NCBI GenBank assembly: GCA_023701005.1
Contig: JAMPXW010000002.1
Span: forward strand, 45,347-109,346
Direction: 5' to 3'
Source of the DNA: Burkholderiales bacterium
GTDB taxonomy: Bacteria > Patescibacteriota > Minisyncoccia > Phycocordibacterales > UBA9973
Length of the DNA stretch: 64,000 nucleotides
Below the pieces are notes generated by a model that worked only from the letters and a program-made list of their open reading frames with translations, was not told where the DNA came from and ran no database searches. The position numbers and the translations under genes are program-made. Within the stretch, counting starts at the first letter, position 1. Each line of letters begins with the position of its first letter. Below, piece by piece: positions 34,109 through 60,857 of the stretch.

Positions 34109-34148
34109 ATTTAATATTTACATATGTACACCATGGTTGATATGTGTA

Positions 34149-38323: not shown

Positions 38324-39040
38324 ATGAAAATACATAGATTTATAGATAAATTTGATTTTTCAAAAAATAAAATAGAAATAACAAACCCTGAAATAATCAA
38401 CCAAATAAAGCTTGTTTTAAGGCTAAAAAAGGGAGAAATTATAATTTTATCTGACGGTAAAGGTAAAAGTATAGAAGTAACCCTAGATACAATAAATCCA
38501 AATAAAATTATATGTATTCCAAACAAAGGAAACTCTACTGTAAAGAATGATACTGAAAATAAAAAAGTAAATTTATATTTAGCTATATTGAAAAAAGAAA
38601 ATTTTGAATTATCTGTACAGAAAGCAGTAGAAGTCGGTGTATCAAAAATAATACCTGTAATAACAGAAAGAACTATTAAAACGGGTTTAAATGTAATTCG
38701 TTTAGAAAAAATAATCAAAGAAGCTAGTGAACAATGCGGAAGAGATATATTACCTACACTATCTAATATCTCTAAATTTGAAGACGCCCTAAAAGATGGA
38801 GAAAATTCTGAAGAGAAAATTATTTTTCATATAGACAAAAATATTAATAACAATTTCTATACTCCAAATAAAAAAGCAAAAACTTCAAGCATTTTTATAG
38901 GACCAGAAGGTGGTTTTACGGAGAATGAAATAAAACTAGCTAAAAATTTAAATTATAAAATCAGTTCTCTTGGCTCTCTAACCTTGCGTGGAGAAACAGC
39001 CGCCATAGTAGCTACTTATCGTGCAGTCGAAGGAATTTAA
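38324..39040 (+). CDS. rsmE: 16S rRNA (uracil1498-N3)-methyltransferase RsmE
   Basis: C-terminal SPOUT block 'FIGPEGGFTENEIKLAKNLNYKISSLGSLTLRGETAAIVA'. Confidence 0.8.
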   Translation: MKIHRFIDKFDFSKNKIEITNPEIINQIKLVLRLKKGEIIILSDGKGKSIEVTLDTINPNKIICIPNKGNSTVKNDTENKKVNLYLAILKKENFELSVQKAVEVGVSKIIPVITERTIKTGLNVIRLEKIIKEASEQCGRDILPTLSNISKFEDALKDGENSEEKIIFHIDKNINNNFYTPNKKAKTSSIFIGPEGGFTENEIKLAKNLNYKISSLGSLTLRGETAAIVATYRAVEGI

Positions 39041-40740: not shown

Positions 40741-40742
40741 GT

Positions 40743-42497: not shown

Positions 42498-42500
42498 TTT

Positions 42501-44579
42501 TTATTCCAAAATCTTTTTTAAAACATCTTCAGAAACTTCTTTTGTCTCAGTTTTAGGAATATTTTTTACTAAATCATCAAGATTAGAAGGCTCAGGAACT
42601 TTTTCTTCAGAAATTTTGACTTCTTCTTTAATTACTTTATCAGATATAAAATTCTTTAATTTATTCATTTCATCTACACTGGCTGATCTGTCTTTTGTGG
42701 ATGTTGGATGAGTATTTGATTGAGTATTTTTTAATTCACTTAAAGATATCTGTTTTACTTGTACTGGTTTTTCTTTTACTATCTCCTTTTTTATAGCCTC
42801 TGGTTCTTTTTTAGCTAAAGTCTTGTCTAATATTTCTCTTAAAGCTAAATTCTCTTTTGGTTTTTCTTTTGTAAATACCTTCTTAAAAGCAGAAAATATT
42901 TTTGGCTTTACCGGAATAAATGGTTTCTGAATATTGGGCACATTAACATTTTTGATTTCTGCTTCATTGTGTATATTTTTATCTATCCTTTCTGGATACC
43001 TTTCAGCACTATTATTCATTCCATCTTTTTGTTTAAATTCTATACCCAGATCAGCCAATGGTTTATAAAATTTAGATTCATCTTGTTTTATTTGATTTAA
43101 TGAACCTTTTATAGGTTTAACTTCTCCTGATTTTATCTTTGCTATACAATCTCTACAATAGACAGCTCTACCTGCTTCTGGTTTAAAAGGAACAAAAGTA
43201 TCTTTTTTACAAACAGAACATTGTGCGGGAAATTTCTCTACTCCAAGGCCATTGGTATCATCACCCAAAGACATTCCACTCCAATTGTTTATTTCTCTTT
43301 CTACGACTTCTCTCGATCTACAATAAAGTTCACGTGATGATTTGATAACTTCCTCTTCGACTTCTTTATTACCAGATTTTGCCATAGGAGGTAAGGTTTT
43401 TGCCGAAAAAGGACGAGATGTTATACCGTCAATCATTAATTTCAAATAAATTTTAAAGTTAGGCAAACTGACAATATCTTGAGGTGTAAATTCTGGTTCA
43501 AATTCTTTTTCTAAAAATTCTGCATCGTCAGCACCTACTCTAAATATAATCATCGTTCCAACGTTACCAAAAATAGAATCTCTCACACTTGAATTTTTGT
43601 CTGAAACTAATTGTGCAGTATACTGATGCGCCACAGTAAGATTCAATCTGTATTTTCTAGCTTCAGATAATATAGAAGCGAAAGAATCTGTAACGAAATT
43701 TTGGAATTCGTCGACATATAAATAAAAATCTTTTCTTTCATCTTCGGGTATACGGACACGTTCCATGGCAGCAAGTTGAATTTTAGTGATGAGCATACCT
43801 CCCAACAAAGAAGAGTTATCTTCACCGATACGTCCCTTAGAAACATTCACAAGGAATATCTTCCCTTCGTTCATTATGTCAAAGACATTTATTGTACTTT
43901 TTGATTGCCCAACGACATTTCTTATGATTGAAGTAGACAAGAATTGTCCAACTTTATTTTGTATAGGAGCAATAGCTTCATTTCTAAACTTATCTTGCCA
44001 AGCTTCATATTCATGAACCCAAAAAGATTTGATGACTGGATCTTTTAAATTAGAAATTATTTTCTGACGATAGTCTTTATCTACCAACATTCTAGGAATA
44101 CCGAGCATTGTGGTGCCTGGAGTATCAAGTAAAGCCAAAATGGCATTATTCAAAATATATTCCATCCTGGCAGACCAAGCATTGGCCCATATCTTCGTAA
44201 AGATCCCCATAAGTCCAGACGCCACTAAGTGTTTATATTTTGGATCAACTAATTCAAGAACATTAAATCCAATATGATAATCAGGGTCACTAGGATTAAA
44301 ATAGACAACATCTTTCATTCGATGAGGAGGAATAGCACCTAAAACACTTTCGACTAATTCTCCATGCGGGTCGACAACACAAACACCAGAACCATTTTCA
44401 ATATTCTGAACTATCATATTAAACATCAATACAGACTTACCTGTACCAGATTTTCCAAGTATATAAACATGCTGACGTCTATCTTTGCGTTTTATGCCAA
44501 AAAGCTGATTTTTATCTCTATAAGTAGTGAGCCCAATGTATGTAAGATCCTTATTTTTTGGTATCTCTTTGATATCCAT
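42501..44579 (-). CDS. VirD4/TraD/HerA-like P-loop ATPase, copy 2 (692 aa), with a C-terminal zinc ribbon and a K/E-rich low-complexity tail
   Basis: Walker A 'YILGKSGTGKSVLM'. 'VVDPHGE'. Walker B 'FYLYVDEFQN'. 'LNLTVAHQY'. C-terminal 'CSVCKKDTFVPFKPEAGRAVYCRDC', then a K/E/P-rich tail. Confidence 0.8.
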   Translation of the reverse strand: MDIKEIPKNKDLTYIGLTTYRDKNQLFGIKRKDRRQHVYILGKSGTGKSVLMFNMIVQNIENGSGVCVVDPHGELVESVLGAIPPHRMKDVVYFNPSDPDYHIGFNVLELVDPKYKHLVASGLMGIFTKIWANAWSARMEYILNNAILALLDTPGTTMLGIPRMLVDKDYRQKIISNLKDPVIKSFWVHEYEAWQDKFRNEAIAPIQNKVGQFLSTSIIRNVVGQSKSTINVFDIMNEGKIFLVNVSKGRIGEDNSSLLGGMLITKIQLAAMERVRIPEDERKDFYLYVDEFQNFVTDSFASILSEARKYRLNLTVAHQYTAQLVSDKNSSVRDSIFGNVGTMIIFRVGADDAEFLEKEFEPEFTPQDIVSLPNFKIYLKLMIDGITSRPFSAKTLPPMAKSGNKEVEEEVIKSSRELYCRSREVVEREINNWSGMSLGDDTNGLGVEKFPAQCSVCKKDTFVPFKPEAGRAVYCRDCIAKIKSGEVKPIKGSLNQIKQDESKFYKPLADLGIEFKQKDGMNNSAERYPERIDKNIHNEAEIKNVNVPNIQKPFIPVKPKIFSAFKKVFTKEKPKENLALREILDKTLAKKEPEAIKKEIVKEKPVQVKQISLSELKNTQSNTHPTSTKDRSASVDEMNKLKNFISDKVIKEEVKISEEKVPEPSNLDDLVKNIPKTETKEVSEDVLKKILE

Positions 44580-44612
44580 ATATAATATTATACAAGAAAA
44601 AAAACGTTTTTA

Positions 44613-46301
44613 CTAATATATTTCTTTCTGATAACAAGCCTCACAATAAACTATCTCTGGTCTTTCGGGAGCATAAGAAGTCTCAAATTCATTATTACAA
44701 CCCTCTTTCATACATTTACGATGCCAAAGTCTTGGTGGATTACGTTTTTCTACTCTCTCAAAATATCTACAATTTGGACAAAGATGTGGGATAGGAATAT
44801 TTAATTTTTTATACAATCCCAATTCATTTTGCAAGACCCTAAAAGCAGTAGTGCAATTATGATTACATTTTCCATTGTGTCCACAGCTTATTATTTCTTG
44901 TATTATATTATCTTTTATATCATTTATATCCTCTGGTAATTGATCTATCGGTAAAGTAACTTTATAATCTCTTAAATCTGCATCACGCCAACAATATCCT
45001 TTATCTTCAACTTCTTTCTTTGTCAGTGGAAAAAGTTCCTGTGCCTCAGATTCATTGTAAGCAAAAGGGCTAATCCAATATGGGAAAAATTCTCCAAATT
45101 CCTTTGTCTTTTTCATATGTTCAATTATTTTTTCTTTCAAATTCTCATATTCTTCTTTGTTGTATTTCTTATTTAAAATTGAATAAGAACCTTTCTTCAT
45201 TCCGACACAACCAAAACAATTTTCAGCAGAAGGAGAAAACAAAGAATAGTAAATATCTCGACATTGAAAACAAAAAACTGAAAAATAATTTCTCTGAGAA
45301 TTATCTGCTACAACTACTTCATAACACTGCTCTGCTTTTCCACTCATTAAACTATCATAAGTGTCTTTTGTCGTATCGCTACCAAAAATAAATCTCTGAT
45401 TTTCTCCGTTAATTACCTGGAAAGCATATTTTACATTTTTACAATTTATCAAAAAATCACCAGTAGAAATTACGGATTTTTTGATATAAGAATATTTATG
45501 AGGGAAATTAGAACAAAAATCTTTAAATTCTTTTTTATATTTTTCTACAGAATAAAAATTACTTAAATTCATCTTTTTTAATTTTATTTCATATTCTTCT
45601 TTTGTATATTGTTTATTTTTTATACAATAGCTTTTATTTCTTAAGCCAATACACATAATACAATTCAAACATCCACTCAAATCATAACCCAAAAAACAAT
45701 CCTGGCATTCTGAACAATAGGTACAATACTTAGAACGTGCTATCTTATAGCACTGCAGACATTCATAAGCGAGCTCCGCTTCTCTCATGTGCATACAGTC
45801 AAGCATATCTTTGTTGTGTTCAATATGAAAAGAATATAAAACATTTTCCGCGTGCCAACCGGAAACACACATATAACAATTTTTACTAAAAAACCAATCA
45901 TATGTATATTCACAATTTACACTTGCTACTTCATTATCATTTGTAATCGAGAGAGCAGGAACTATTAATGACAACTCTTTTAGTTGCTCAAAAAAGTTTT
46001 TAGAAAAATCAAATTCTATCCCATATTGACATGGATCCCAATTATCACTCCACCAACATTTTTGACAATAAACTGGGAATGGTGCATTTGTTGGATAAAT
46101 AGAAATTATATTTTTCTTACACAAGTCACATTCTCTTTTATATAAGGTATGGCCATTTCGAAACATCATTCGTCTCTGCATTCTACATTCCGGGCAAAAA
46201 GTTGGTGGTGGAACAACTATTTTCTCATAAAAACCAAAATCATCCGGCTCTATTGTGAAGTCTTTTTTACAGTTTTGACAATTTTTAATTTCAGATTGCA
46301 T
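44613..46301 (-). CDS. Cys-rich zinc-ribbon paralog family protein, copy F (562 aa)
   Basis: 'CQNCKKDFTIEPDDFGFYEKIVVPPPTFCPECR' ... 'CIGLRNKSYCIKNKQYTKEEYE' ... 'LWHRKCMKEGCNNEFETSYAPERPEIVYCEACYQKEIY'. Confidence 0.85.
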   Translation of the reverse strand: MQSEIKNCQNCKKDFTIEPDDFGFYEKIVVPPPTFCPECRMQRRMMFRNGHTLYKRECDLCKKNIISIYPTNAPFPVYCQKCWWSDNWDPCQYGIEFDFSKNFFEQLKELSLIVPALSITNDNEVASVNCEYTYDWFFSKNCYMCVSGWHAENVLYSFHIEHNKDMLDCMHMREAELAYECLQCYKIARSKYCTYCSECQDCFLGYDLSGCLNCIMCIGLRNKSYCIKNKQYTKEEYEIKLKKMNLSNFYSVEKYKKEFKDFCSNFPHKYSYIKKSVISTGDFLINCKNVKYAFQVINGENQRFIFGSDTTKDTYDSLMSGKAEQCYEVVVADNSQRNYFSVFCFQCRDIYYSLFSPSAENCFGCVGMKKGSYSILNKKYNKEEYENLKEKIIEHMKKTKEFGEFFPYWISPFAYNESEAQELFPLTKKEVEDKGYCWRDADLRDYKVTLPIDQLPEDINDIKDNIIQEIISCGHNGKCNHNCTTAFRVLQNELGLYKKLNIPIPHLCPNCRYFERVEKRNPPRLWHRKCMKEGCNNEFETSYAPERPEIVYCEACYQKEIY

Positions 46302-49117: not shown

Positions 49118-49630
49118 ATGTCAAGCAAACAAGAATATTCCAATAAAATACTTAAAATATTAGCTGAAAAACCAGCTGTACCTTTAGAGGCAATAAAGGA
49201 AAATAAGGATTCAAAGACAGGATATGCCCTTAATCGTTCAATAAAAAATCTTATAGAGTCTGGCTGTATCGAAATATTAAAATCAGATAATAGAGATTAT
49301 CTCAAATTAACAAAAAAAGGTAAAAATAAATTGAATTCTTTAAAACTTGAGGCCGATGGAGTACTAGTCTCTACTCATTGGGATGGATTATGGAGAATAA
49401 TTATTCTAGATATCCCAGAACAAAGAAAAAGTGAGCGAGAGGCTTTGAGATACCTACTAAAAAAAGCAAATTTCGTTTGTGTAAAAAACACTGTATGGAT
49501 ATCCCCTTTCCCTTATGAAAATCTTTTCACTAATATTAAAAAAGATTTAAACTTAGGCACAGAATTAATGATAATCGTCACAAATAAATTAGACGAAGAA
49601 ACAGCAAAAGCATTTAAATCAAGTTTTTAA
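49118..49630 (+). CDS. PaaX-like winged-helix transcriptional regulator (170 aa)
   Basis: 'HWDGLWRIIILDIPEQRKSEREALRYLLKKANFVCVKNTVWISPFP' fits the PaaX C-domain pattern WdGxW..V...iPE..R..R..LR..L...gF..l...vWisP. The N-terminus is wHTH-like. Confidence 0.55.
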   Translation: MSSKQEYSNKILKILAEKPAVPLEAIKENKDSKTGYALNRSIKNLIESGCIEILKSDNRDYLKLTKKGKNKLNSLKLEADGVLVSTHWDGLWRIIILDIPEQRKSEREALRYLLKKANFVCVKNTVWISPFPYENLFTNIKKDLNLGTELMIIVTNKLDEETAKAFKSSF

Positions 49631-51395
49631 AACCACCAGCTTGAAGATCCCAAAGTTTTTTATACAAACCATTTTCTTTCTTAGAAAGTTCTTCATGTTT
49701 TCCATCTTCTATTATTTTTCCTTTATCTAAAACAATTATTCTGTCCATCTGTCTTATCGTGGAAAGTCTATGAGCTATGACTATCGTCGTCTTCCCTTCT
49801 ATTAATTTATGCAACGCATCTTGAATCAAAGATTCTGAATGTGAATCCAAAGATGAAGTAGCCTCATCTAAAATGAGAATCGGTGCATCCTTTAATATCG
49901 CACGAGCTATAGCTACACGTTGTCTTTCTCCACCAGAAAGTTTTATTCCTCTTTCTCCGACATATGTCTCATAACCTTGTGGTAATTTATCTATAAAATC
50001 ATCACAATGGGCTAAGTGAGCGGCTTTTAAGACTTCTTCGTCAGTCGCATCTCTTCTTCCATAACGAATATTCTCCATCAAAGTACGATGAAATAAAACA
50101 GGATCTTGCGGTACGAAAGCAATCTGTTCTCTTAAATTCTCTTGAGATATTTTACTTATATCTACTCCATCGATTGTTATCTCTCCTTCTGTAAGATTAA
50201 ATAATCTCATTAAAAGACGTACGAAAGTCGTTTTACCTGCCCCTGAAGAGCCTACAATAGCTATCTTTTGTCCAGCTGGAACAATAAGCGAAAAATCATC
50301 CAACACCTTACTATTGTTATTTTTATAAACATAAGTGACTTTATTAAAAATCACTTCTCCTTTTGCATTGCTAATTTTTTTCTCAGTATTGTCTATTATT
50401 TCATAAGGAGTGCCTAAGATCAGAGCCATCTCTTGAGCATCTGCAAAACTATCGTAAAAAGTACGGACGATCATACCAAAGCTCCATAAATTTTCCAACA
50501 AACGAAGTAAATAGCTTTGTAATAAAACCATAACTGGCAAAGTAATCAAACCTAGTTTCCAGTCTCCAATAGCCAGCCAAAAAACTATAAACTCAATTAT
50601 TATCGAATAAAAACTTTGAATGGCGCCCAAGCCCTCCCATAAATACCAATTAAAAACTGTAGCTTTTCTTTGTTTTTCTATTGTTTCTCCTGTACGCTTT
50701 TCTTCAAATCTATGCCCTGTAAATATCTGGATAGAAGAGTGATTTGTAATAGCATCAGCCAATACTCCATTGGTCTTTGTATCAGCAAGAGCTGCTATGA
50801 CATCATATTTTAATTTATATCTAATATAAATAAAAGCTGTCAATAAAAATATTACACAAAAAATAGCTAACACAAGAGAATATTTAGGAAACAAAGTATA
50901 TATAGCCACCACCGTACCTACTCCTCTTATTAACAAAGGTAAACCATCCGCTATCATTCTGTCTGTTAATTTTTCAAAAGCTACTGCATATTTACTTATT
51001 TTTCTAGTTAAAGAACCACTAAAATTATTTGCAAAAAAAGAATTTGAATGCCCAATCATATAAGAAAAAGCCTGTTGCCTGAGTCCTGCCATAACCCCAG
51101 ATTCAAAATATGAAAGAGAAAACCCAGACAATCTCCTTACTCCCCAGCGAATTAAATTTAAAACTAAAATAAATATAATAATAGATTTAGCTACAGGAAC
51201 AACAGTAAAATCATTAACGCTTAAAACGTTCCATAACTTTAAAAATTGCAAAGGAATATATACATCTAAAATAGATGAAATCGTGGTAAATATGACTACA
51301 GAGAAAAAAGACACCTTAAAGTGTTTTATTACCTTCCAAAAATATTTAAGCACCAAACTTATGTGCAAATTTGAATAGTCTTTTTCCTTTTCCAT
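49614..51395 (-). CDS. ABC transporter permease/ATP-binding fusion protein (type I exporter, MsbA-like)
   Basis: Six-TM N-terminal domain. Walker A 'GSSGAGKTT'. Signature 'LSGGERQRVAIARA'. Walker B 'ILILDEATSSLD'. Confidence 0.85.
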   Translation of the reverse strand: MEKEKDYSNLHISLVLKYFWKVIKHFKVSFFSVVIFTTISSILDVYIPLQFLKLWNVLSVNDFTVVPVAKSIIIFILVLNLIRWGVRRLSGFSLSYFESGVMAGLRQQAFSYMIGHSNSFFANNFSGSLTRKISKYAVAFEKLTDRMIADGLPLLIRGVGTVVAIYTLFPKYSLVLAIFCVIFLLTAFIYIRYKLKYDVIAALADTKTNGVLADAITNHSSIQIFTGHRFEEKRTGETIEKQRKATVFNWYLWEGLGAIQSFYSIIIEFIVFWLAIGDWKLGLITLPVMVLLQSYLLRLLENLWSFGMIVRTFYDSFADAQEMALILGTPYEIIDNTEKKISNAKGEVIFNKVTYVYKNNNSKVLDDFSLIVPAGQKIAIVGSSGAGKTTFVRLLMRLFNLTEGEITIDGVDISKISQENLREQIAFVPQDPVLFHRTLMENIRYGRRDATDEEVLKAAHLAHCDDFIDKLPQGYETYVGERGIKLSGGERQRVAIARAILKDAPILILDEATSSLDSHSESLIQDALHKLIEGKTTIVIAHRLSTIRQMDRIIVLDKGKIIEDGKHEELSKKENGLYKKLWDLQAGGFKNLI

Positions 51396-51455
51396 AAAAA
51401 CAAAAATTCGGCATTTTCTGCCTTATTTTTACTATACCATATTAAATTATATTTT

Positions 51456-51492
51456 CCACTTTTCCCGGGCACCTGGTGTCCGGGAAAAGTGG
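51456..51492. other. GC-rich near-perfect 18-bp hairpin (CCACTTTTCCCGGGCACC-t-GGTGTCCGGGAAAAGTGG) between paralog copy G and the ABC exporter gene
   Basis: Seen in the sequence, with one mismatch. There is no flanking T-run on either strand, so it is not a canonical intrinsic terminator. Confidence 0.4.
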
Positions 51493-51532
51493 TGTGTTAT
51501 AATAAATACAAAACTAGTATCCTATCTAAGAG

Positions 51533-53275
51533 TTAATAAACTTCTTGTTGATAACAACGTTCACAATAGACTATTTCTTTTCTCTCGGGGGCATAAGAAG
51601 TCTCAAATTCATTATCACATCCCTCTTTCATGCATTTTCTTTTATATAATTTGATTCCATTTCGCATTTTTATGCGTTCGAAATGCCTACAATTAGGACA
51701 AAGTCTAGGAATTGGTATATTCATTCTTTTATAAAAAGAAAGTTCTGTCTCAGTTATTTTAAAAGCTTCTGTACAAGAACCATCACAATTCGATTCAAAA
51801 TGATTATTTTTACTATGATGTAAGCATTCAATGACCTTTCCTATTATACTAGAATCAATGCTTAAAATATCATCAGCTATATCTTCCTGTTTTATATCTA
51901 TTAAATAATTTCTTTTTTCTTCTTCTCTCCATTTATAACCCTTTTCTAAAATCTCACCTTTCATTAAAGGAAAATAATCCTGAGCCAAAGATTCATTGTA
52001 ACAAAAAGGAGACAAGTCAGATGGTAAAAACTCACCATATTTATAAATTACTCCTCTCTTATCTACATACGGAAGATCATTCATATGCTGTTTTATTTTT
52101 GGCAATAATTCTTCATATGCTTCTTTTGTATATTGTTTATTTAAAATACAATATTGTTTATTTCTAAGTCCAGAACAACCAAAAATGTTTGTACATCCAG
52201 TACAACTAAATGAATATTCACAATTTTGACAACCTTTGCTGCAACGATAGTTAAATTTATTATTAAAACAATCAGAACCTACAGAAGAACATTCATAACA
52301 TAATTCAGAATTCTCCCCCCATAAAGTACAATCATAACAATCTTTAAAATTTCGTGTAAAAAAAACTTGTATATATTTACTATCTTCTCCCCCAATTACA
52401 TAATAACTTTGATGAACATTTTTAGAATTATTTATGTATTCACCAGAAACATTATTATTATATCGACCTTCTAAAAATTTTCTTATATTTTTATTTAAAA
52501 TAATATCAGTCTTCCGCTTTGTTTTTTCTAATGCTTCATAAGAACCTAAATTGAAATCCCTAATAAATTTTTCATACTCTCCCTTAGAATATTGTTTATT
52601 AAAAACAAAATACTGCTTATTTCTTAAATTAGTACAACCAAAACAAGAATTACAACCAATTAAATCTCTGGAAAACCACACATCCATGCAGTTTTCACAG
52701 TGAGAAGAAAATAAAGTTCTATAACATTTAGTAAGGGCAAAGGATTGATAACATAATTCAGATGATTCAATTCTAGTTACATCTATTGAATTTTTTGTTC
52801 TATTAATTTCAGCACTATACATTGAATCTTCTGAAATCGCTGCAACAAACACTAAATAACAATTTTTTAAATCATGAGCCCCACTACAATAATCGCTGTT
52901 AACCATATCCCAAGAAGTTTGGCTAGGAATAGGAACATCTAAAAATAATTCTTTTAATTGGATAAAAAAATTTTTATTAAAGTCATATTCTCTACCATAA
53001 TCCAAGCTATTTAATTCATCAGACCACCAAATATCTCTCTCCCAAACTTTAAAGGGTGATTCTTGTGGAACGATAGAAAAAATAGTTTTTCCTGTTTTAT
53101 CACTTATTCTCTTATATAAAACACGATAATCACGAAAAGCCATTCTCCTAATCATCCTACACTCCGGGCAAAATGTAGGTGGAGGAACCTTTATTTTTTC
53201 ATAAAATTTAAAATCTTCTTGCTCGATTATGAAGTCTTTTTTACAATTCTGACATTGTCGGGTTTCGTTTTTCAT
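51533..53275 (-). CDS. Cys-rich zinc-ribbon paralog family protein, copy G (580 aa)
   Basis: 'CQNCKKDFIIEQEDFKFYEKIKVPPPTFCPECR' ... 'CTNLRNKQYFVFNKQYSKGEYEK' ... 'CSGLRNKQYCILNKQYTKEAYEEL' ... 'EIVYCERCYQQEVY'. Confidence 0.85.
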   Translation of the reverse strand: MKNETRQCQNCKKDFIIEQEDFKFYEKIKVPPPTFCPECRMIRRMAFRDYRVLYKRISDKTGKTIFSIVPQESPFKVWERDIWWSDELNSLDYGREYDFNKNFFIQLKELFLDVPIPSQTSWDMVNSDYCSGAHDLKNCYLVFVAAISEDSMYSAEINRTKNSIDVTRIESSELCYQSFALTKCYRTLFSSHCENCMDVWFSRDLIGCNSCFGCTNLRNKQYFVFNKQYSKGEYEKFIRDFNLGSYEALEKTKRKTDIILNKNIRKFLEGRYNNNVSGEYINNSKNVHQSYYVIGGEDSKYIQVFFTRNFKDCYDCTLWGENSELCYECSSVGSDCFNNKFNYRCSKGCQNCEYSFSCTGCTNIFGCSGLRNKQYCILNKQYTKEAYEELLPKIKQHMNDLPYVDKRGVIYKYGEFLPSDLSPFCYNESLAQDYFPLMKGEILEKGYKWREEEKRNYLIDIKQEDIADDILSIDSSIIGKVIECLHHSKNNHFESNCDGSCTEAFKITETELSFYKRMNIPIPRLCPNCRHFERIKMRNGIKLYKRKCMKEGCDNEFETSYAPERKEIVYCERCYQQEVY

Positions 53276-53276
53276 A

Positions 53277-54974
53277 TTAATAAACTTCTTGCTGATAACA
53301 CTTCTCGCAATAAACTATCTCAGGGCGTTCGGGGGCATAAGAAGTCTCAAATTCGTTATCACATCCCTCTTTCATGCATTTCCTATGCCAAAGCTTCATT
53401 GGGTTTTTAAGACTAAGCCTCATTTTATATCTTTCATCTTGATGAATTCTAGGTAATGGAATATCCATACGACGATAAAATTCTAATTCAAAAGGAGTAA
53501 TTTTAAAAGCTTTTTTTGTTATCAAACATTCTATAACTTCATTTAGAATAGAATGATCTACATCTTTTATATCATCTGGAATTTCTTCAGCTTTTTTTGT
53601 TATCACATATTTATTGTCGATCTTCTCTTTATATGAATATCCATTTTTTAATATTTCTTCTTTTGTAAGCAAAAAATGATCATTTGCAACTGTTTCATTA
53701 TATCCAAATGGAGAAAACTCAAAAGGAAAAAATTCACCATATTTATAAATATTACCAATACTATCTATGTAAGGCATCTCATCCATTTGTTTTTTTATTT
53801 TTCCTACTAATTCAAAGTATTCTTCCTTTGTATATTCTTTATTTAAAATACAATATTCTTTATTTCTTAAACCAACACAACCGAAAATATAACTAGAAGA
53901 TCCACAATAATCACTATATTCAACATGGCTTAAAGCTGGATAACCAGTAGTTATAAATTTTAAATTTTGACTATTTGTTGCACCACCAGAACTAAACTCA
54001 TAGACCAATTCTCCACTTAAATGACAAGTATCCATTACATCTTTTGAATTAACATCCCTATATGTATATTTTGAATTTTCAGTACCATAAGAATTAAAAA
54101 TGAAATTAGAAGATTTACAATTTCTTATATCATCCCCTTTTGAATTTATACAATTTGTTGTTCTAGCATATTTTCTTGGAAATTTTAATGAAAAATCCCA
54201 AAATTTATCAAAATTTTCTTTAAAAAATTTATAACTTCCAATATTTAAATTTTTTATTTTTTCAAAATATTCGTCTTTATCATATTCTTTATTCCAAATA
54301 CAATATTTTTTATTTCGTAAATTTACACAACCAAAACAATTCTGACAATTGACACAATCTAAAACGAAATTGGAATCAATACACGAAGAAGACCAATAAC
54401 AATATTTACAATTATAATTTTTTGTACATCCAATATTTTGATATATTAATTCACTTTCAGTTATATTATAAGAATCTACTACTAATTTTGAATTATCGAT
54501 ATTGCTTGAATAATAAACATTTTCTGAGCCAAATATAACAGAATATGAGAGATAAGCATTTTTTGCACCATCAACAAAATTAGCATATTCTACATTCAAA
54601 CAATTGCCAACTTGCCTAATAGCTGGACGAGGCACCTTATTAAACAATTCTCTCCATTGCACAAAAAAAGATTTTTTAAAATCATATTCTTGACTATATT
54701 TTAATGAATCCCAATCATCACTTTTCCAACATTCTGCACAATATACTGGGAAAACAACATTGGCATCATATACTGCAATTATTTTCTTATTACATAGGTC
54801 ACAACTGCGTTTATATAGAGAGCGCTCATTTCTCCAAATTAATCTACGAACAAGTCGACACTCCGGGCAAAATGTAGGTGGAGGAACCTTTATTTTTTCA
54901 TAAAATTTAAAATCTTCTTGCTCTATCTGAAAGTCTTTTTTACAATTCTGACATTGTCTTATCTCATTTTTCAT
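53277..54974 (-). CDS. Cys-rich zinc-ribbon paralog family protein, copy H (565 aa)
   Basis: 'CQNCKKDFQIEQEDFKFYEKIKVPPPTFCPECR' ... 'CVNLRNKKYCIWNKEYDKDEY' ... 'CVGLRNKEYCILNKEYTKEEYFEL' ... 'LWHRKCMKEGCDNEFETSYAPERPEIVYCEKCYQQEVY'. It lies 1 nt from copy G. Confidence 0.85.
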   Translation of the reverse strand: MKNEIRQCQNCKKDFQIEQEDFKFYEKIKVPPPTFCPECRLVRRLIWRNERSLYKRSCDLCNKKIIAVYDANVVFPVYCAECWKSDDWDSLKYSQEYDFKKSFFVQWRELFNKVPRPAIRQVGNCLNVEYANFVDGAKNAYLSYSVIFGSENVYYSSNIDNSKLVVDSYNITESELIYQNIGCTKNYNCKYCYWSSSCIDSNFVLDCVNCQNCFGCVNLRNKKYCIWNKEYDKDEYFEKIKNLNIGSYKFFKENFDKFWDFSLKFPRKYARTTNCINSKGDDIRNCKSSNFIFNSYGTENSKYTYRDVNSKDVMDTCHLSGELVYEFSSGGATNSQNLKFITTGYPALSHVEYSDYCGSSSYIFGCVGLRNKEYCILNKEYTKEEYFELVGKIKKQMDEMPYIDSIGNIYKYGEFFPFEFSPFGYNETVANDHFLLTKEEILKNGYSYKEKIDNKYVITKKAEEIPDDIKDVDHSILNEVIECLITKKAFKITPFELEFYRRMDIPLPRIHQDERYKMRLSLKNPMKLWHRKCMKEGCDNEFETSYAPERPEIVYCEKCYQQEVY

Positions 54975-55087
54975 ATAATTTAAAAATTCTTATGAAACCA
55001 TATTTTTACCCTAAATTTAATAGTCTGAAAAATCATCGGTAATATTTGTTTCAAATATTCTATTTTATTTTTAAATTTTTTCATCTT

Positions 55088-56869
55088 TTATATAAATTCT
55101 GCTTGATAACATTTTTCACAATATACTATTTCTTTTCTCTCGTCACTTATCGCTGTTTTAAATTCATTCTGACATGGGTTATCTCCATGGTCATGTTTTA
55201 TTGTATTTTTATATTCTTTATTACTTGATTCTACACCATTACACATACATTTTCTATACCAAAGTTTGGGTGGATTCTTTATCTTTAAACGCTCTCCGTA
55301 ACGACAATTTGGGCACAATCTTGAAAGAGCTACTTTCATTTGTCGATGAAAAGATAACTCATTTGGTAAAATACGAAATGCATTTGTGCATTGTTGATTA
55401 CATTCTCCTTTATGTGCGCACTCAAAAACCTCATTTAATATATCATCAGACACAATATCTATATCATCTGGCATGTCTTCTGATTTTTTGGTTATTTTAT
55501 AATCTCTTTCTTTTTCATCATACCATTTAAAACCTTTCTTAATTGCTTCTTCTTTCGTCAATGGAAAATAATTTTGAGCCTGCGTCTCATTATAAGACCA
55601 AGAGGATAATTCATAAGGAAAAAATTCTCCGTATTTATATACTCTTCCTTTACTATCTATATATGGCATATCATTCATATGCTTTGTTATCTTAAAGACT
55701 AGCTCTTCATATTCTTCTTTTGTGTATTGTTTATTCAAAATACAATAAGATTTATTTCTTAATTTAGTACAACCAAAAAGATTATTACAAAAATAAACTC
55801 TATCGGAATAAATGATATCTGTTGATTCATTACAACCACGACTTAAAAAACATCTTTGCGAATGTTCAACCCCATTAACTTCATATAATAAATTCGAAAC
55901 GTCTCCTCCAAAAGTAACATCAATACTATCTTTTAAGAGCAAACCTCCTAAAAAAATAAATTTACAATCTTCTACTCCTCTTAAAACAGAAAAACAATTC
56001 TTACAATTCTTAGTATTTTGAATATCATCACCAGATATATTTACAGAATTTTTTATATAAGCAAATTTCCTTGGAATTTGATAATAAAATTTCCAAAACT
56101 CTTCTTTTGCTTTTTGTAAAATCTTGTAATTACCCAAGTTCCATCTTTCTATCTCTTTTTTATATTCTTCTTTTGTATATTGTTTGTTAAAAATACAATA
56201 TTTTTGATTTCTTAAGTTCACACAACCGAAACAGTTAGAACAACCTACACAATTAAAAAGAAAGGCTGAATCAATACATTCATCTGAAAAATAAATAAAT
56301 TTTGTATTATATCCAGAATTAGAATTCAAATTTTCGTATACATGATCTACATTTAAAACACCATCCGAATCTATTGAATCCTTAGAAAAAACAGGAACCT
56401 GGCAATTATAACAATTTATAGATTCATACCCATCAAAACAAAGTACACAATTTTTAGATCGTGTGTTCCCATTAGAATAGAAACAGTCAATAGACCCTTT
56501 TTGAAAAATCGACTGAAAAGGTACAACCTTTAATAAGTCTTTAAATTGTTCAAAAAATGACCTAGAGAAATCATAATCCCTGCCATAATCCGTAGCATCC
56601 CAAGAATCTTTCCACCAACAATCTGAACAATAAACTAAAAAAGAATTTTCCTTGTTATATATACTTATTATTTCTTTTTTACAACTATCACAATTTATTT
56701 TATACAGAGATCTATTCTCTCTATAACATAAACGTCTCACGAGTCTGCACTCTGGACACCAAGTTGGCGGAGGGACTTTTATTTTTTCATAAAATTTAAA
56801 ATCTTCTGGCTCGATTATGAAGTCTTGTTTACAATTTTGGCATATCTTGTTTTCACTTTTATATTCCAT
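55088..56869 (-). CDS. Cys-rich zinc-ribbon paralog family protein, copy I (593 aa)
   Basis: 'CQNCKQDFIIEPEDFKFYEKIKVPPPTWCPECR' ... 'CVNLRNQKYCIFNKQYTKEEYKKE' ... 'CTKLRNKSYCILNKQYTKEEYEEL'. There is a C-terminal insertion before 'EIVYCEKCYQAEFI'. Confidence 0.85.
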   Translation of the reverse strand: MEYKSENKICQNCKQDFIIEPEDFKFYEKIKVPPPTWCPECRLVRRLCYRENRSLYKINCDSCKKEIISIYNKENSFLVYCSDCWWKDSWDATDYGRDYDFSRSFFEQFKDLLKVVPFQSIFQKGSIDCFYSNGNTRSKNCVLCFDGYESINCYNCQVPVFSKDSIDSDGVLNVDHVYENLNSNSGYNTKFIYFSDECIDSAFLFNCVGCSNCFGCVNLRNQKYCIFNKQYTKEEYKKEIERWNLGNYKILQKAKEEFWKFYYQIPRKFAYIKNSVNISGDDIQNTKNCKNCFSVLRGVEDCKFIFLGGLLLKDSIDVTFGGDVSNLLYEVNGVEHSQRCFLSRGCNESTDIIYSDRVYFCNNLFGCTKLRNKSYCILNKQYTKEEYEELVFKITKHMNDMPYIDSKGRVYKYGEFFPYELSSWSYNETQAQNYFPLTKEEAIKKGFKWYDEKERDYKITKKSEDMPDDIDIVSDDILNEVFECAHKGECNQQCTNAFRILPNELSFHRQMKVALSRLCPNCRYGERLKIKNPPKLWYRKCMCNGVESSNKEYKNTIKHDHGDNPCQNEFKTAISDERKEIVYCEKCYQAEFI

Positions 56870-56914
56870 AATTTTTTCTTAACACTTTTGGACGACCGTC
56901 TGAACCTGATAACA

Positions 56915-58597
56915 TCAATTTATGTTTTGTTTATAACATTCTTCACAAGCAATTTTCTTGTAATTCCACTCTGGTAAATAATAAGCCTTTCTATCTTTTT
57001 TACAATAACAACAAACATAATCATATGATTGAAGTACCGTTAGAGTCTTCAGGCTTTCTTTGATTCGTACATCAAAATGATATCTAGGAAGTGGGATTCC
57101 ATTTTCTCTGTAAAAAGAAAGTTCATTTCTGGCAATATTAAAACGCCAACCAGTCAAAGGACATATTAAAGCTTGGGTAATAATAGTATCGGGAACATCT
57201 TTTATATCATCAGGTAATTTGTCTGTGCTCATTCCTTCGATATTGCTTTCATTTATATCTTCCCAATAACCACCAAATTTTAAAATATCTTCTTTTTTAG
57301 TATCTGGAAAATATGTAAAACTAGTAGAAAAATTAAAAGGCCCAGCGCTCATAGAATATGGTAAAAATTTACCATACTCTCCTCTTTTTTTCATATCAGA
57401 AATTATTTTATTTTTTAGTTCTTCGTATTCAACTTTTCCATATTTTTTATTTAAAATACAATATTTTTTCTTTTTTAAACCCACACAACCAAAACAATAT
57501 TCACATTCAATACATAGATCTAAATATTCAGAGTATCTAGAAGACGACCAAGAAGAATATTTCAAAGCATAACCATTAACACAGCAACTACAGTTACCTA
57601 ATAATTCAGTATACCAACAACCATCTGCATCAATATCTGATTTATGTCTCATTCCTCTAATACAATTGAAACAATCTTCTGATTCACTGATCGTATTGCA
57701 ATTATGACAATTTTTACAATCTAAAAGATAATCACCGTCAGAATCATATATTTTAAGGTTAAAATTAAGCCTATGAACAACTTCATCTTCCATAATTTCC
57801 TCAAAACGTTTTTTAAAAGATTGAATGGCTTGATATGAACCTAAATTATAAGATTTTATTTTTTCTAGATATTCTTCCCTGCTATATTCTACATTTTCGA
57901 TACAATAAGATTTGCCTCTTAAATTCCAGCACATAAAACAATTTTGACAATTTCGACAGTCATAAAGAAAATAAGAATCGATACAATCACGAGAATGTTT
58001 TGAATAAAATAACTTATAAGAATGATGGCACTCTGCAGAGTCGTAACATTTTTCTGAATTATAACAAATAGCTACATCAATAGAATTTTTAACTTTCAAA
58101 TTCCTGTATGAATACATTAAATCTTCACATTCTTCCATTGATCGTGCTAAATAACAATTTTTAGAATTCCAAACATCATCACAATAATCGCAATTAGTGT
58201 TCTTTATACCATTCTGGTGTGGACGAGGAACTTTTTTTTGAAGTTTTTGTAATTGTTCAAAAAATGGTTTATTTTCATCATAATCTTGACCATAATTCAT
58301 AGCATCCCATTTATCGCTATACCATTCTGTAGATGTATAAATAGGGTAACGATTTTTCTCTGGTAATACTGTAATCAAATTCTCTCCAGATAAATCTGAC
58401 TTACCTTTGCGAAATTTTCCAAACATCCAAAAAGATAGATGTTGTTTTATACGACAAAAATTACAAATAGTTGGTAATTCTATATCAACTTTTTTATACA
58501 AAGAAAGTTCTCCATCCGTAATGGTAAATTCATTTTTGCAGTGCTCACATTCTCTATTTCTCTGTAATCGATTCTGATTCATTATATTCAAAAACAT
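56915..58597 (-). CDS. Cys-rich zinc-ribbon paralog family protein, copy J (560 aa), the most divergent member
   Basis: 'CEHCKNEFTITDGELSLYKKVDIELPTICNFCR' ... 'CWNLRGKSYCIENVEYSREEYLEK' ... 'CVGLKKKKYCILNKKYGKVEYEEL' ... C-terminal 'ACEECYKQNIN'. Its start overlaps the end of grpE. Confidence 0.8.
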   Translation of the reverse strand: MFLNIMNQNRLQRNRECEHCKNEFTITDGELSLYKKVDIELPTICNFCRIKQHLSFWMFGKFRKGKSDLSGENLITVLPEKNRYPIYTSTEWYSDKWDAMNYGQDYDENKPFFEQLQKLQKKVPRPHQNGIKNTNCDYCDDVWNSKNCYLARSMEECEDLMYSYRNLKVKNSIDVAICYNSEKCYDSAECHHSYKLFYSKHSRDCIDSYFLYDCRNCQNCFMCWNLRGKSYCIENVEYSREEYLEKIKSYNLGSYQAIQSFKKRFEEIMEDEVVHRLNFNLKIYDSDGDYLLDCKNCHNCNTISESEDCFNCIRGMRHKSDIDADGCWYTELLGNCSCCVNGYALKYSSWSSSRYSEYLDLCIECEYCFGCVGLKKKKYCILNKKYGKVEYEELKNKIISDMKKRGEYGKFLPYSMSAGPFNFSTSFTYFPDTKKEDILKFGGYWEDINESNIEGMSTDKLPDDIKDVPDTIITQALICPLTGWRFNIARNELSFYRENGIPLPRYHFDVRIKESLKTLTVLQSYDYVCCYCKKDRKAYYLPEWNYKKIACEECYKQNIN

Positions 58598-59165
58598 TAA
58601 CCCTGGCAGCTCGTATTACTCTATCGCCTAATTTATATCCCTTTTGAATAACCTCAGATATTTTATGATTATTTTCTTTCACATCCGTCTTTGTCATATC
58701 GATAGACTGATGAATATTTGGGTCAAAATCTTCTCCTTCTTCCCCGACCTCTTTTACATCATATTCTTCAAATATTGTATTGAGTTGAGCATAAATATAT
58801 TCTACTCCTTTTCTCCAATTTTCATCCACCTTATTCCAAGATTCTTTATTTGCAAAGGCCATATTAAAACTATCTAATACCGTCAAAAATCTAGTGAGAA
58901 TGCGTTCACGTACTGATTCTGAGAAATTAGATCTTCTATCGTCTTCTTGTTTACGATAATTAACGAAGTCAGCTCTTTCTTTCTGCCAACCATTTAAATA
59001 TTCTTCTTTTTCTTTTTTGCAAATTTTTAAATCAGCTCTTAATTTCTTAATAGTTTTCTTTAAATCTTCTTCTCCATCTTCGTTAAATTCAAATTCAAGA
59101 ACTTCCGACTCAGTAGAGTCGTCCCGAGTAGAGTCGATAGATATTTCTTTTTCTTCATCTTTCAT
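58554..59165 (-). CDS. grpE: Nucleotide exchange factor GrpE
   Basis: 'ERADFVNYRKQ', 'ILTRFLTVLDSFNMA', 'DFDPNIHQSI' and 'QKGYKLGDRVIRAARVNVFEY' are the GrpE blocks. Confidence 0.8.
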   Translation of the reverse strand: MKDEEKEISIDSTRDDSTESEVLEFEFNEDGEEDLKKTIKKLRADLKICKKEKEEYLNGWQKERADFVNYRKQEDDRRSNFSESVRERILTRFLTVLDSFNMAFANKESWNKVDENWRKGVEYIYAQLNTIFEEYDVKEVGEEGEDFDPNIHQSIDMTKTDVKENNHKISEVIQKGYKLGDRVIRAARVNVFEYNESESITEK

Positions 59166-59181
59166 ATTTCCATAATAACAA

Positions 59182-59210
59182 AAAATACCCCTATTTTCAA
59201 GGGGTATTTT
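59182..59210. terminator. Palindromic hairpin AAAATACCCCT-attttca-AGGGGTATTTT, a terminator downstream of fic. An identical copy lies at 60396..60424.
   Basis: An 11-bp perfect stem with T-runs on both strands. A sigma70-like TTGAAA-N17-TATTAT can be read through it on the minus strand just upstream of grpE. Confidence 0.55.
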
Positions 59211-59229
59211 AATTACTATCTATTCATTT

Positions 59230-60414
59230 TTACTTAAGAAGTTTTATTAGTTCTGGGTTATAAAAAAGTACTTCTTTCTTAACTTTATCTTTCTTTAACA
59301 TACCATCTTTTGCAAGTAAGTTTAGATACTTTTGCGCTGTATTAAGATGAATTCCAGTACTATTCGCTAAATCTTTGTAAGTATAATAAGATTTTGAAAA
59401 AAGATAATCAATAAATCTAGCCTCAGATGGTAACTTAGTCCCTTTAATTTTAAATTTATAATCAAGTATTAATTGTCTTATACTTAGAATAATTTTATTT
59501 GTTTCATTTGCCTGTTTTATTACTCCATTTAAAACATAAATTATCCAATCTTTCCATTTTTCTTTTTCAGTTACTTCTCTTAAGAGCTTATAATAGATAT
59601 CTTTTGAACCTAAAATATATCCACTCATAAACAAAAAAGGTAAATCTAATCTTTTAACAAGGACAAGATAAAGAACCATCAAAATTCTACCTGTTCTACC
59701 ATTGCCATCCCTAAATGGATGAATAGCCTCAAATTGATAATGTAAAATTGCCATTTTTACAAGAAGGTCTGGCTCTTGTGAATCATTGTCATTATAAAAA
59801 TCTTCAAAATTTTTAAGAAAAACCCTAATAAGTTCTTCTCCTTCTGGAGGGGTATAAATCACTTCATGGGTAATACCATTTTCTATTCTAACAGGTTCTT
59901 TTGTTTGTGAAATATTTCTAATACCTGATTTTTCAGGTTCTAATATTTTCTGAAGAATTATAAAATCATTTGTATTTAAAAATCCTCGGTCTAAAATTAA
60001 TTTAACACCTTTCCATAATGCTTCTTTATAATGAAGTGTTTCTTTTCTTGGATCAGTAAAAGATAAAGTCTCTTTATTAAGCACATCTGCTTTAAAAACT
60101 TCTGCTACTGTGGTGTGAATATTTTCTACACCACTACTAGCAACAGCTTCTCTTATTGCTAAAGGATTAAAAACTAAATCTCTATTTGGTAATGTTCTTG
60201 CTGTTCCATTTAATTCTGAAAGAGCTATATTTGCTCTATTAGTTAACTTTAATATATCTATATCATCAAAATTAAAATCTGGAGGCAAAATTGGCAAGTT
60301 ATTATAAGGTTTTTGGGGGTCATTCTTCATACACAAAATTGTATCAAATTTGTGTTTATTAAGCAAGTCAGACACAACCGGTGTATTTAACCAAAAAAAT
60401 ACCCCTATTTTCAA
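59230..60414 (-). CDS. Fic/Doc family protein (probable AMPylase) with a C-terminal wHTH
   Basis: Canonical Fic motif 'HPFRDGNGRTGRILM'. The start is either TTG 60414 (SD 'AAGAGGA' upstream, inside the hairpin) or the internal ATG at 60330. Confidence 0.75.
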   Translation of the reverse strand: MKIGVFFWLNTPVVSDLLNKHKFDTILCMKNDPQKPYNNLPILPPDFNFDDIDILKLTNRANIALSELNGTARTLPNRDLVFNPLAIREAVASSGVENIHTTVAEVFKADVLNKETLSFTDPRKETLHYKEALWKGVKLILDRGFLNTNDFIILQKILEPEKSGIRNISQTKEPVRIENGITHEVIYTPPEGEELIRVFLKNFEDFYNDNDSQEPDLLVKMAILHYQFEAIHPFRDGNGRTGRILMVLYLVLVKRLDLPFLFMSGYILGSKDIYYKLLREVTEKEKWKDWIIYVLNGVIKQANETNKIILSIRQLILDYKFKIKGTKLPSEARFIDYLFSKSYYTYKDLANSTGIHLNTAQKYLNLLAKDGMLKKDKVKKEVLFYNPELIKLLK

Positions 60415-60424
60415 GGGGTATTTT
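60396..60424. terminator. Second identical copy of the AAAATACCCCTattttcaAGGGGTATTTT hairpin, a terminator after rpsI
   Basis: Identical 29-nt palindrome, with about 33 nt of identical flanking context ('caaaaaaatacccctattttcaaggggtatttt'). Confidence 0.55.
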
Positions 60425-60434: not shown

Positions 60435-60857
60435 TTAACGTTTTGACCATTGTGGAGCTTTACGAGCCTTCTTGAGTCCGAATTTTCTTCTTTCTTTAGC
60501 TCTAGGGTCACGTTTAAGATATCCTAAAGTTTTCATTTTGCCACGTAATTCTTTATCAAATAAAACCAAAGCGCGAGCGAGTCCATGACGCACTGCCTCT
60601 GCTTGAGAATGCACTCCGCCTCCAGAAACCTTGGCTTCTACCTTCCATTTGTTATCTTTATTTTCTCCTTCTATTCCTTTTATAAATGGATCTGAAATCA
60701 AACGACGTTCTTCTTCTGTTTGAAAGTATTCTTTAGCATCTTTATCGTTAACTACAAAACTATTCTTACCTGCTTCCCAGATACGCACTCTGGCTGTTGA
60801 AGTTTTTCTTCTTCCTATAGCTTCGATATATGTTTCTTTTGTTATTTTCTTTTCCAT
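60435..60857 (-). CDS. rpsI: 30S ribosomal protein S9
   Basis: 'GGGVHSQAEAVRHGLARAL' and the C-terminal '...QWSKR'. Confidence 0.9.
   Translation of the reverse strand: MEKKITKETYIEAIGRRKTSTARVRIWEAGKNSFVVNDKDAKEYFQTEEERRLISDPFIKGIEGENKDNKWKVEAKVSGGGVHSQAEAVRHGLARALVLFDKELRGKMKTLGYLKRDPRAKERRKFGLKKARKAPQWSKR

Follow-up and report, generated by a model that had tools for sequence, protein, structure and literature searches.

Class II Fic proteins are defined by an intramolecular inhibitory helix, (S/T)xxxE(G/N), that lies N-terminal to the Fic core (PMC3667792). SoFic catalyzes both AMPylation and de-AMPylation of EF-Tu and binds the 100-bp stretch upstream of its gene (bioRxiv 10.64898/2026.07.09.737422), and it is an abortive-infection defense protein, the Escherichia coli version of which is accompanied by the downstream-encoded 47-aa antitoxin AS1 (PMC12249575). 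EF-Tu AMPylation, toxicity, and phage protection are known for the Shewanella and E. coli enzymes (bioRxiv 10.64898/2026.07.09.737422; PMC12249575). Here, we analyze a SoFic-type fic gene in a 64,000-nt stretch of contig JAMPXW010000002.1 (the whole stretch is hereafter called the window), where it lies between the ribosomal protein gene rpsI and grpE and is bracketed by two identical 31-nt copies of a hairpin. We consider it highly probable that three statements hold jointly, namely that fic was inserted at this locus, that the native hairpin was duplicated, and that fic is of SoFic identity; the mechanism of integration stands outside this estimate.

The window Fic has the same three domains and the same catalytic and inhibitory motifs as SoFic of Shewanella oneidensis. 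Unlike the SoFic proteins of Shewanella and E. coli, its host is a bacterium of the Candidate Phyla Radiation (CPR). While the E. coli gene (EcSofic) is followed by the small AS1 gene, fic in the window is without AS1, and the 19-nt tail behind it is too short for one. SoFic is reported to bind its own promoter, and the conserved palindromes of the window fic promoter fit that activity.

Results

The rpsI–grpE junction with and without fic

A scan with GrpE, using one genome per species, returned 80 loci (identified below by L numbers), about 48 of which belong to Candidatus Nomurabacteria/Paceibacterota and have 65 to 90% GrpE identity. All of these ~48 relatives, where the contig reaches, keep the order rplQ–rplM–rpsI–grpE without fic between rpsI and grpE, and their rpsI–grpE spacers measure 20 to 260 nt except in L036 and L051. 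As fic is absent from this spacer in all of them, it is an insertion in the window. The preliminary description of this DNA had proposed that fic entered as a cassette, and the ~48 loci, together with 11 metagenome contigs in which rpsI adjoins grpE without fic, bear this out.

The hairpin itself is present in uninterrupted spacers. The 58-nt spacer of L005 contains the identical hairpin once, and L007 also has the identical hairpin. When a metagenome collection was searched exactly with the 21-nt hairpin core, 12 contigs were found, and 11 of them (L089–L099) are rpsI–hairpin–grpE empty sites with a single copy and no fic. The remaining contig, L100, has an unrelated context and a higher GC content; roughly one chance match of a 21-mer is expected in a collection of that size, and by this rough estimate the L100 match is compatible with chance. 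The core had no matches in the viral collection. Moreover, with up to five mismatches allowed, the 29-mer occurs in 865 kb from ~100 related loci only in the rpsI–grpE spacer, on the same strand and once per genome.

Alignment with the single-copy empty sites reveals that copy 2 of the hairpin retains the rpsI-side flank of the ancestral spacer and copy 1 the grpE-side flank. Because empty sites contain the hairpin once and the two copies continue opposite flanks, the hairpin belongs to the target and was duplicated by the insertion. It had been suggested that the cassette either carried or copied the rpsI terminator. Copying from the target holds, given the single copy in empty sites, whereas a cassette-borne terminator was rejected, as no similar hairpin is found downstream of fic in L081–L088 and L101–L104.

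All genes around fic lie on the − strand, and the order of transcription is rpoA, rplQ, rplM, rpsI, hairpin, fic, hairpin, grpE, and two large cysteine-rich open reading frames (ORFs). The placement of fic between the two hairpins, and between grpE and rplM–rpsI, was thus described correctly at the outset, and exactly one gene is bracketed. The features of the locus, in window coordinates and in order of transcription, are as follows.

60435–60857, − strand: rpsI, ribosomal protein S9 (Pfam Ribosomal_S9, 1.3e-37; synteny kept in ~48 relatives)
60394–60424, − strand: hairpin copy 2, the predicted native rpsI terminator (folding, terminator scan, and alignment to single-copy empty sites)
60331–60393, − strand: 5′ regulatory region of fic, which arrived with fic (block conserved in eight fic loci)
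59230–60330, − strand: fic, encoding a predicted 366-aa SoFic-type class II Fic AMP-transferase (Pfam, PDB, PADLOC, and NCBIfam matches)
59211–59229, − strand: tail of the insert, 19 nt from the fic stop to hairpin copy 1 (from the coordinates)
59180–59210, − strand: hairpin copy 1 (the same 31 nt as copy 2)
59166–59180, − strand: predicted extended −10 promoter of grpE (promoter scan; TGnTAnnnT spacing in relatives)
58554–59165, − strand: grpE, Hsp70 nucleotide-exchange factor (Pfam GrpE, 8.6e-38)

The gene rpsI closes the rplQ–rplM–rpsI run with a TAA stop at 60437–60435. The sequence unique to the insert amounts to 1183 nt and consists of ~62 nt of promoter and palindromes, the 366-codon ORF, and the 19-nt tail, with fic as its sole ORF.

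Sequence and structure of the duplicated hairpin

The exact direct repeat is 31 nt long (59180–59210 and 60394–60424), with a start-to-start spacing of 1214. Of the identical context of ~33 nt that had been noted around both hairpins, the bracketing of one gene by two copies stands, but exact identity is confined to these 31 nt: the 33-mer is exact only at 60392–60424, and the other copy aligns best without gaps at 59178–59210, with two mismatches and a run of A6 instead of A7. Beyond the hairpin, 23 nt are only ~52% identical between the copies, which is near chance for such T-rich DNA. Matches to the 33-mer were found in none of 100 shuffles of the window, and the core CCCCT-N-AGGGG occurs at two places only in the 64 kb, compared with 0.06 expected. 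Even with three mismatches or a degenerate core allowed, the window holds only these two copies of the hairpin.

Read on the − strand, both copies consist of AAAATACCCCT-TGAAAAT-AGGGGTATTTT and further U residues, which gives each a perfect 11-bp stem, a 7-nt loop, and a tract of U6 or U7. The limits of the repeat coincide with those of the hairpin, in that the repeat starts exactly at the stem base and ends in the U-tract. Copy 2 begins 10 nt past the rpsI stop and has a U-tract of T7 if position 60393 is counted, and copy 1 lies 19 nt past the fic stop with a U6 tail. Folding of the − strand together with the flanking sequence gave −17.3 and −19.9 kcal/mol (z-scores of −4.2 and −4.9), and both copies were picked up as terminator-like by a terminator scan. 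A stem-loop with a U-tract just past the stop codon, as in rho-independent terminators, is therefore found at rpsI as well as at fic, and each copy is predicted to be a classical intrinsic terminator. Termination in both directions, as the preliminary description had it, is not supported: a U-tract follows the stem only on the − strand, the stem of copy 1 has no U-rich sequence after it on the + strand, and there is no converging + strand gene.

The exact hairpin sequence is shared across species with 73 to 88% GrpE identity while the flanking spacer varies. Compensatory changes on both stem arms are present in L011 (two C-G pairs changed to U-A) and L021 (one pair), and in more distant relatives, the place of the hairpin in the spacer is taken by GC-rich hairpins of unrelated sequence, again with U-tracts. 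Stem covariation and replacement of the hairpin at the same place are consistent with the way in which terminators evolve. Like other rho-independent terminators that overlap the next promoter, the window hairpin has a GC-rich stem and a U-tract after the last gene of an operon. It differs from ordinary terminators in being present as two identical copies through an insertion and in a cross-species sequence conservation that is stronger than usual.

A predicted grpE promoter overlaps the hairpin

The loop of hairpin copy 1 contains TTGAAA (59200–59195) at the −35 position of a putative grpE promoter. Downstream of it follow TGT (59180–59178), TATTAT (59177–59172), six nucleotides (GGAAAT), and the grpE ATG, and a promoter scan returned TTGAAA-17 nt-TATTAT with TG upstream. 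In 35 of 49 related loci, exactly 6 nt lie between the end of the element TGnTAnnnT and the ATG of grpE, and a Shine-Dalgarno sequence is lacking. From this 6-nt spacing and the missing Shine-Dalgarno sequence, we infer that the grpE mRNA is probably leaderless, which suggests that leaderless mRNAs with extended −10 promoters may be common in the lineage.

The hairpin variants of L001, L049, and L032 are altered in the 5′ arm only, with the loop TTGAAA and the 3′ arm invariant; a further hairpin element that has a U-tract is located upstream in L001 and L049. That the loop and 3′ arm are invariant despite the decay of the 5′ arm points to a promoter constraint on this half of the element. A heat-shock operator of the CIRCE (controlling inverted repeat of chaperone expression) or HAIR (HspR-associated inverted repeat) kind upstream of grpE was considered and judged unlikely. 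A decayed 5′ arm next to an invariant loop and 3′ arm fits constraint on a −35 and spacer better than a symmetric operator, no second copy lies near other genes in the available sequence, and the hairpin differs from the CIRCE and HAIR consensus sequences.

fic encodes a predicted auto-inhibited class II AMP-transferase

Three Pfam families match the Fic protein above their gathering scores (PF13784, 4.3e-20; PF02661, 5.5e-17; PF21248, 5.4e-08), which gives an architecture of Fic_N, Fic, and a SoFic-like wHTH (winged helix-turn-helix) domain at the C terminus. The catalytic Fic motif HPFRDGNGRTGR fits HxFx(D/E)GNGRxxR and is aligned with HPFIDGNGRTGR of SoFic, and the protein aligns over its full length with solved SoFic structures in the PDB (E = 1.9e-61). 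In addition, the inhibitory motif SSGVEN corresponds column for column to SSEIEN of SoFic, which holds Glu73. The PADLOC SoFic model scored 320.7 bits (E = 3.5e-96), and the NCBIfam equivalog NF046030 (SoFic) scored 296.9 bits, below its cut-off of 550 bits. Judged by its sequence, the fic product is a distant member of the SoFic family and an auto-inhibited class II AMP-transferase.

As the inhibitory helix lies within the protein, no separate antitoxin is expected. The portrayal of the gene as a toxin-like Fic lacking its antitoxin has to be given up in this respect, and the search for an adjacent antitoxin came out as anticipated: there is no credible small ORF, and hairpin copy 1 comes just 19 nt after the fic stop, with grpE following it. 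A class I Fic toxin–antitoxin module of the VbhT/VbhA type was rejected on the same grounds, since no small gene adjoins fic and the protein itself contains the inhibitory motif. By family likeness, the window Fic would belong to the single-gene SoFic anti-phage family and would have a role in defense.

The fic start codon and a conserved promoter block

Starting at ATG 60330, fic encodes a protein of 366 aa, which is also the length of P0001, an identical protein in the database. This start aligns with the N termini of homologues and lies 63 nt downstream of the hairpin. The longest ORF opens at TTG 60414 inside the hairpin, and its 28 extra codons are without counterpart in homologues.

Upstream of fic lies a palindrome, ACAC-N-GTGT, with TTGTGT at 60377–60372. 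It is followed by a putative −35 element, TTGCTT (60366–60361), by ACACAA (60355–60350), and by an extended −10 element consisting of TG (60346–60345) and TACAAT (60343–60338); a second TTGTGT (60336–60331) abuts the ATG. A promoter block of ~62 nt upstream of the ATG is common to eight fic loci (the window, L081, L082, L083, L088, L101, L103, and L104), which have 58 to 77% protein identity and all lie in different neighborhoods. The consensus of the block comprises ACAC-N5/6-GTGT, a −35 TTGC, and CACAAA-N11-TTTGTG around TGnTAnnAT, with TTTGTG running right up to the start codon, which lies 7 nt past the −10. In L104, the block has undergone a symmetric change to TACAAA…TTTGTA. The most fitting interpretation of the block is a leaderless promoter that contains operators for auto-regulation; the fic mRNA is probably leaderless, and the palindromes are a candidate binding site for the wHTH domain of Fic. 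Since the block begins no more than 9 nt past the repeat, the insert corresponds almost exactly to a single functional unit of fic.

The position of the block also bears on the proposal that the upstream hairpin overlaps the fic ribosome-binding site and TTG start and gates translation by sequestering them. Although the longest ORF does start at TTG 60414 in the hairpin, the additional codons are absent from homologues and from the 366-aa P0001, and the hairpin pre-exists in genomes without fic. Moreover, the promoter block shared by the eight loci sits between the hairpin and ATG 60330, which places the hairpin upstream of the fic transcription start and leaves it no part in translation. TTG 60414 is thus taken as the opening of an ORF extension, and the probability that we assign to translational gating is next to nil.

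Genomic contexts of fic homologues

The closest homologues of fic (77 and 74% identity) lie directly downstream of an Xer-like tyrosine recombinase gene in L081 or of its remnant in L082, where the recombinase gene survives only in degraded form and adjoins a tRNA. The homologue in L101 is found beside an IS1595 transposase, and those in L083–L087 lie in a region with 71- to 75-nt direct repeats and a large serine recombinase. Other homologues are singletons amid housekeeping genes, such as one that a Kaiserbacteria genome has between ruvC and ruvB. The third-position GC content (GC3) of fic is 13.7%, the lowest among 19 window genes sampled. From its contexts, fic is typical mobile defense cargo, and the event is not datable.

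The direct repeats of 71 to 75 nt in L084 (4212–4307 and 6437–6521; 92–94% identical) bracket fic together with a gene of 226 aa. A 32-nt part of this repeat recurs at L084:9567–9598 in the 3′ end of the large serine recombinase gene, 3 kb downstream, and the repeats are possibly nested att sites.

The rpsI–grpE spacer is a recurrent insertion site

Two relatives have other genes in the rpsI–grpE spacer. In L036 (4218–5285), the spacer contains a HicB/HicA toxin–antitoxin pair and a 115-aa ORF, and in L051 (3336–4262), it contains a 245-aa ORF whose SLT-like match is weak and below threshold. The rpsI–grpE spacer is a recurrent insertion hot spot in Nomurabacteria.

The spacers of L001–L049 additionally hold at least four families of structured elements of 80 to 110 nt (elA–elD), which are distributed by lineage, with elC occurring in both orientations. 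A copy of elB, a ~75-nt element 88% identical to L009:5884–5977, is present elsewhere in the window (13891–13964, − strand). The same element lies in the rpsI–grpE spacer in L002, L009, and L037 and at other places in L001, L003, and L005, and it may represent a gene for a small RNA or a MITE (miniature inverted-repeat transposable element). At the gathering threshold, Rfam identified only the tRNA in L082 among ten related loci, and the spacer elements match no known RNA family.

Origin of the duplication

We propose that a self-contained SoFic-type fic unit inserted into the short rpsI–grpE spacer exactly at the native hairpin. Copy 2 would still terminate the ribosomal-protein transcript and would shield fic from read-through, while fic, with an extended −10 promoter of its own, would give rise to a leaderless or near-leaderless mRNA and would probably be auto-repressed by its C-terminal wHTH domain on the conserved palindromes. 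Copy 1 would then terminate fic and restore the ancestral context of the grpE promoter, with the loop as its −35. As for the mechanism, the most likely one, to which we give somewhat less than an even chance, is that a circular fic element integrated by a single crossover at the hairpin, either in an att-like manner or through short homology. Such a crossover would leave the crossover sequence on both sides, and the recombinase would since have been lost or would act in trans, as in integrase-less elements resembling cis-mobilizable elements (CIMEs). With its two 31-nt repeats, the cassette might be lost precisely, and the corresponding circle would have the junction …GATAGTAATT-hairpin-TGGTTAAATACACC….

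Several observations weigh against this history or parts of it. The insert and its immediate surroundings contain no recombinase, transposase, or terminal inverted repeats, and in a tblastn search, the Xer-like fragment of L081 had no match in the 64-kb window even at E ≤ 10. The insertions in L036 and L051 occupy the same spacer without flanking duplication, so that duplication is no rule at this hot spot. In codon usage, fic falls within the range of its host, and the insertion therefore need not be recent. Since the hairpin is exactly conserved across species, the sameness of its two copies may reflect selection. The −35 in the hairpin loop may be dispensable, as extended −10 promoters often work without a −35, and the matches to a −35 are poor in relatives with other hairpins. 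Finally, terminator, promoter, leaderless status, and auto-repression are all predictions drawn from sequence.

Another fic locus has a bearing on how the repeat arose. In L104, a 32-nt direct repeat (128–159 and 1392–1423; spacing 1264) surrounds the promoter block and P0004, a SoFic-type gene with 61% identity. The repeat is unrelated to the window hairpin, does not form a hairpin, and begins 8 nt past the stop of the upstream gene; the empty site of L104 is to be recognized by TTGTGRCCCTAATTATACGGAATTGGAACCAG. This locus lends some support to the repeat being a target-site duplication, produced when a break staggered by ~31 to 32 nt, the length of the palindrome, was made either by an integrase of fixed stagger or through nicks at the two bases of an extruded cruciform and was then filled in. 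The repeat around P0004 is identical at 31 of 32 positions and has different flanks, the window repeat runs from the stem base into the U-tract, and the ends of the insert differ between the window and L104 without terminal inverted repeats, which argues against transposases that recognize their ends. However, no candidate enzyme is present, two cases are too few to exclude a coincidence in repeat length, and the cruciform version cannot be general because the L104 repeat forms no hairpin. In addition, bacterial transposases are not known to make target duplications of 31 to 32 nt. On balance, a staggered break ranks next after the single crossover but seems rather unlikely. The geometry of the hairpin could also be taken to mean that it is itself a recombination site, at which a circular cassette with fic and the same site was integrated by an Xer-like recombinase in trans, leaving two direct repeats of the site and a cassette that may still be excisable. 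The 11-7-11 arrangement, with inverted 11-bp arms and an asymmetric 7-bp center, resembles a dif or lox core site; identical, complete palindromic sites in direct repeat around a cassette are the outcome of lox-type integration; the two closest homologues follow an Xer-like recombinase gene or remnant; and exact conservation across species in a varying spacer would make the hairpin a dependable target. Yet neither the insert nor the 64-kb window contains a recombinase, and in relatives, the element behaves like a terminator, with stems that covary or give way to GC-rich hairpins of unrelated sequence that have U-tracts. Across 11 loci from metagenomes and 7 from genomes, the hairpin is always single and never surrounds other cargo, the insertions of HicAB and in L051 are without such repeats, and the direct repeat around fic in L104 is unrelated and non-palindromic. 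We therefore regard a recombination site as a poor prospect.

It would be a coincidence that the hairpins flank fic if the 29-mer were a common terminator or a dispersed motif resembling repetitive extragenic palindromic (REP) sequences or MITEs, present after rpsI and fic alike. Both copies are indeed in terminator position, as such a motif would be, and nothing else speaks for this view. A check for further copies, raised in the preliminary description, found none elsewhere in the 64-kb window, in the 865 kb of relatives, or in the metagenomes, save the chance-like L100; outside the window, the motif is restricted to the rpsI–grpE spacer, in 11 of the 12 metagenome matches as in the 865 kb, and viral contigs have none. 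A coincidence is thus very improbable, and a dispersed REP or MITE repeat was rejected, as there are two copies at one locus and the relatives have a single copy at the orthologous spacer only. What probability remains for the mechanism falls to multistep histories, such as a tandem duplication that came first or illegitimate recombination, aided by homology, with DNA from a related donor. A literature search on terminator duplication at cassette insertions found nothing specific.

Host lineage and other features of the window

The gene neighborhood clearly identifies the host lineage as Candidatus Nomurabacteria (Paceibacterota/CPR), and the GC content of the window is 30.6%. The database protein P0001, which is identical to the window Fic, carries the NCBI label "MAG: Burkholderiales bacterium"; given this Nomurabacteria/Paceibacterota neighborhood, the label is probably a binning or taxonomy error.

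Much of the window is taken up by at least 12 paralogous cysteine-rich ORFs of about 560 to 690 aa (11552–13270, 32393–35867, 39037–46301, and 49614–58597), and the two that were tested have no Pfam match. The cysteine-rich ORF adjoining grpE is kept downstream of grpE in most relatives (51–83% identity), often with further paralogues behind it. Six to seven tandem 33-nt repeats (18573–18803; 62–73% identical) lie within a − strand ORF at 18289–18990 and thus give an 11-residue repeat in the protein.

A further direct repeat, 62 nt long and 76% identical, is found at 7513–7574 and 8164–8225 and consists of the last seven murG codons and a TGTGATATAAT promoter, the genes being on the − strand. 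It brackets 651 nt with a terminator and two small genes of 64 and 84 aa, which have Shine-Dalgarno sequences and no Pfam match. This repeat looks like another insertion that duplicated regulatory sequence of its target.

Discussion

Among known types of mobile elements, the fic insert can be compared with integrase-less islets of the CIME type and with degenerate integrative elements. Like them, it is a short, cargo-only insert between ~30-nt direct repeats of a conserved target with dyad symmetry, and the closest homologues of its cargo adjoin tyrosine or serine recombinases. Direct repeats of a target core that flank an insert in the manner of attL and attR are present (31 nt, with one copy in the empty site), and no integrase gene or remnant was found in the 1183-nt insert. 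Unlike CIME-type islets, the repeat in the window is a terminator/promoter hairpin rather than a tRNA or the 3′ end of a gene, there is no recombinase remnant at the window fic, and the core is not reused in other fic insertions. A transposon or insertion sequence was rejected, given the lack of a transposase and of inverted repeats at the ends and a duplication of 31 nt as opposed to the short duplications of 2 to 15 bp. An integron cassette was also rejected: the repeat is the native terminator of the target and not attC, and the window has no tyrosine recombinase, although no attC model was run. The reading of the hairpin as a dif site was dropped because unrelated terminator hairpins replace the element in other Nomurabacteria. 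REP sequences, bacterial interspersed mosaic elements (BIMEs), and MITEs are likewise short, perfect, extragenic palindromes in more than one copy, whereas the window hairpin is not dispersed.

The duplicated terminator/promoter is a clear and fairly ordinary insertion scar at a hot spot. On account of the L104 repeat and the murG-end repeat, we nevertheless keep a more interesting reading of the duplication in view, in which SoFic cassettes of CPR bacteria are moved by an undescribed insertion process that duplicates ~31 to 32 nt of the target and whose pattern has been seen twice and independently, in the window and in L104. Such a process would employ an integrase of fixed, long stagger or a recombinase directed by the hairpin or att site in trans. 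We give this reading only a small chance of being correct. If it were true, the repeats would make the defense gene precisely excisable. Only the origin of the long flanking repeat could prove to be new.

The analysis corrects the annotation of the gene, which starts at ATG 60330 and would encode a class II auto-inhibited enzyme that needs no antitoxin. It also provides operator candidates for SoFic, namely ACAC-N-GTGT and CACAAA-N11-TTTGTG around a putative leaderless promoter, which complement the reported binding of SoFic to its own promoter. The locus is a clean example of how a single-gene defense system, SoFic, has come to lie in the core genome of a bacterium of the ultra-small CPR kind, in which one duplicated 31-nt terminator/promoter element would keep three transcription units insulated after the insertion.

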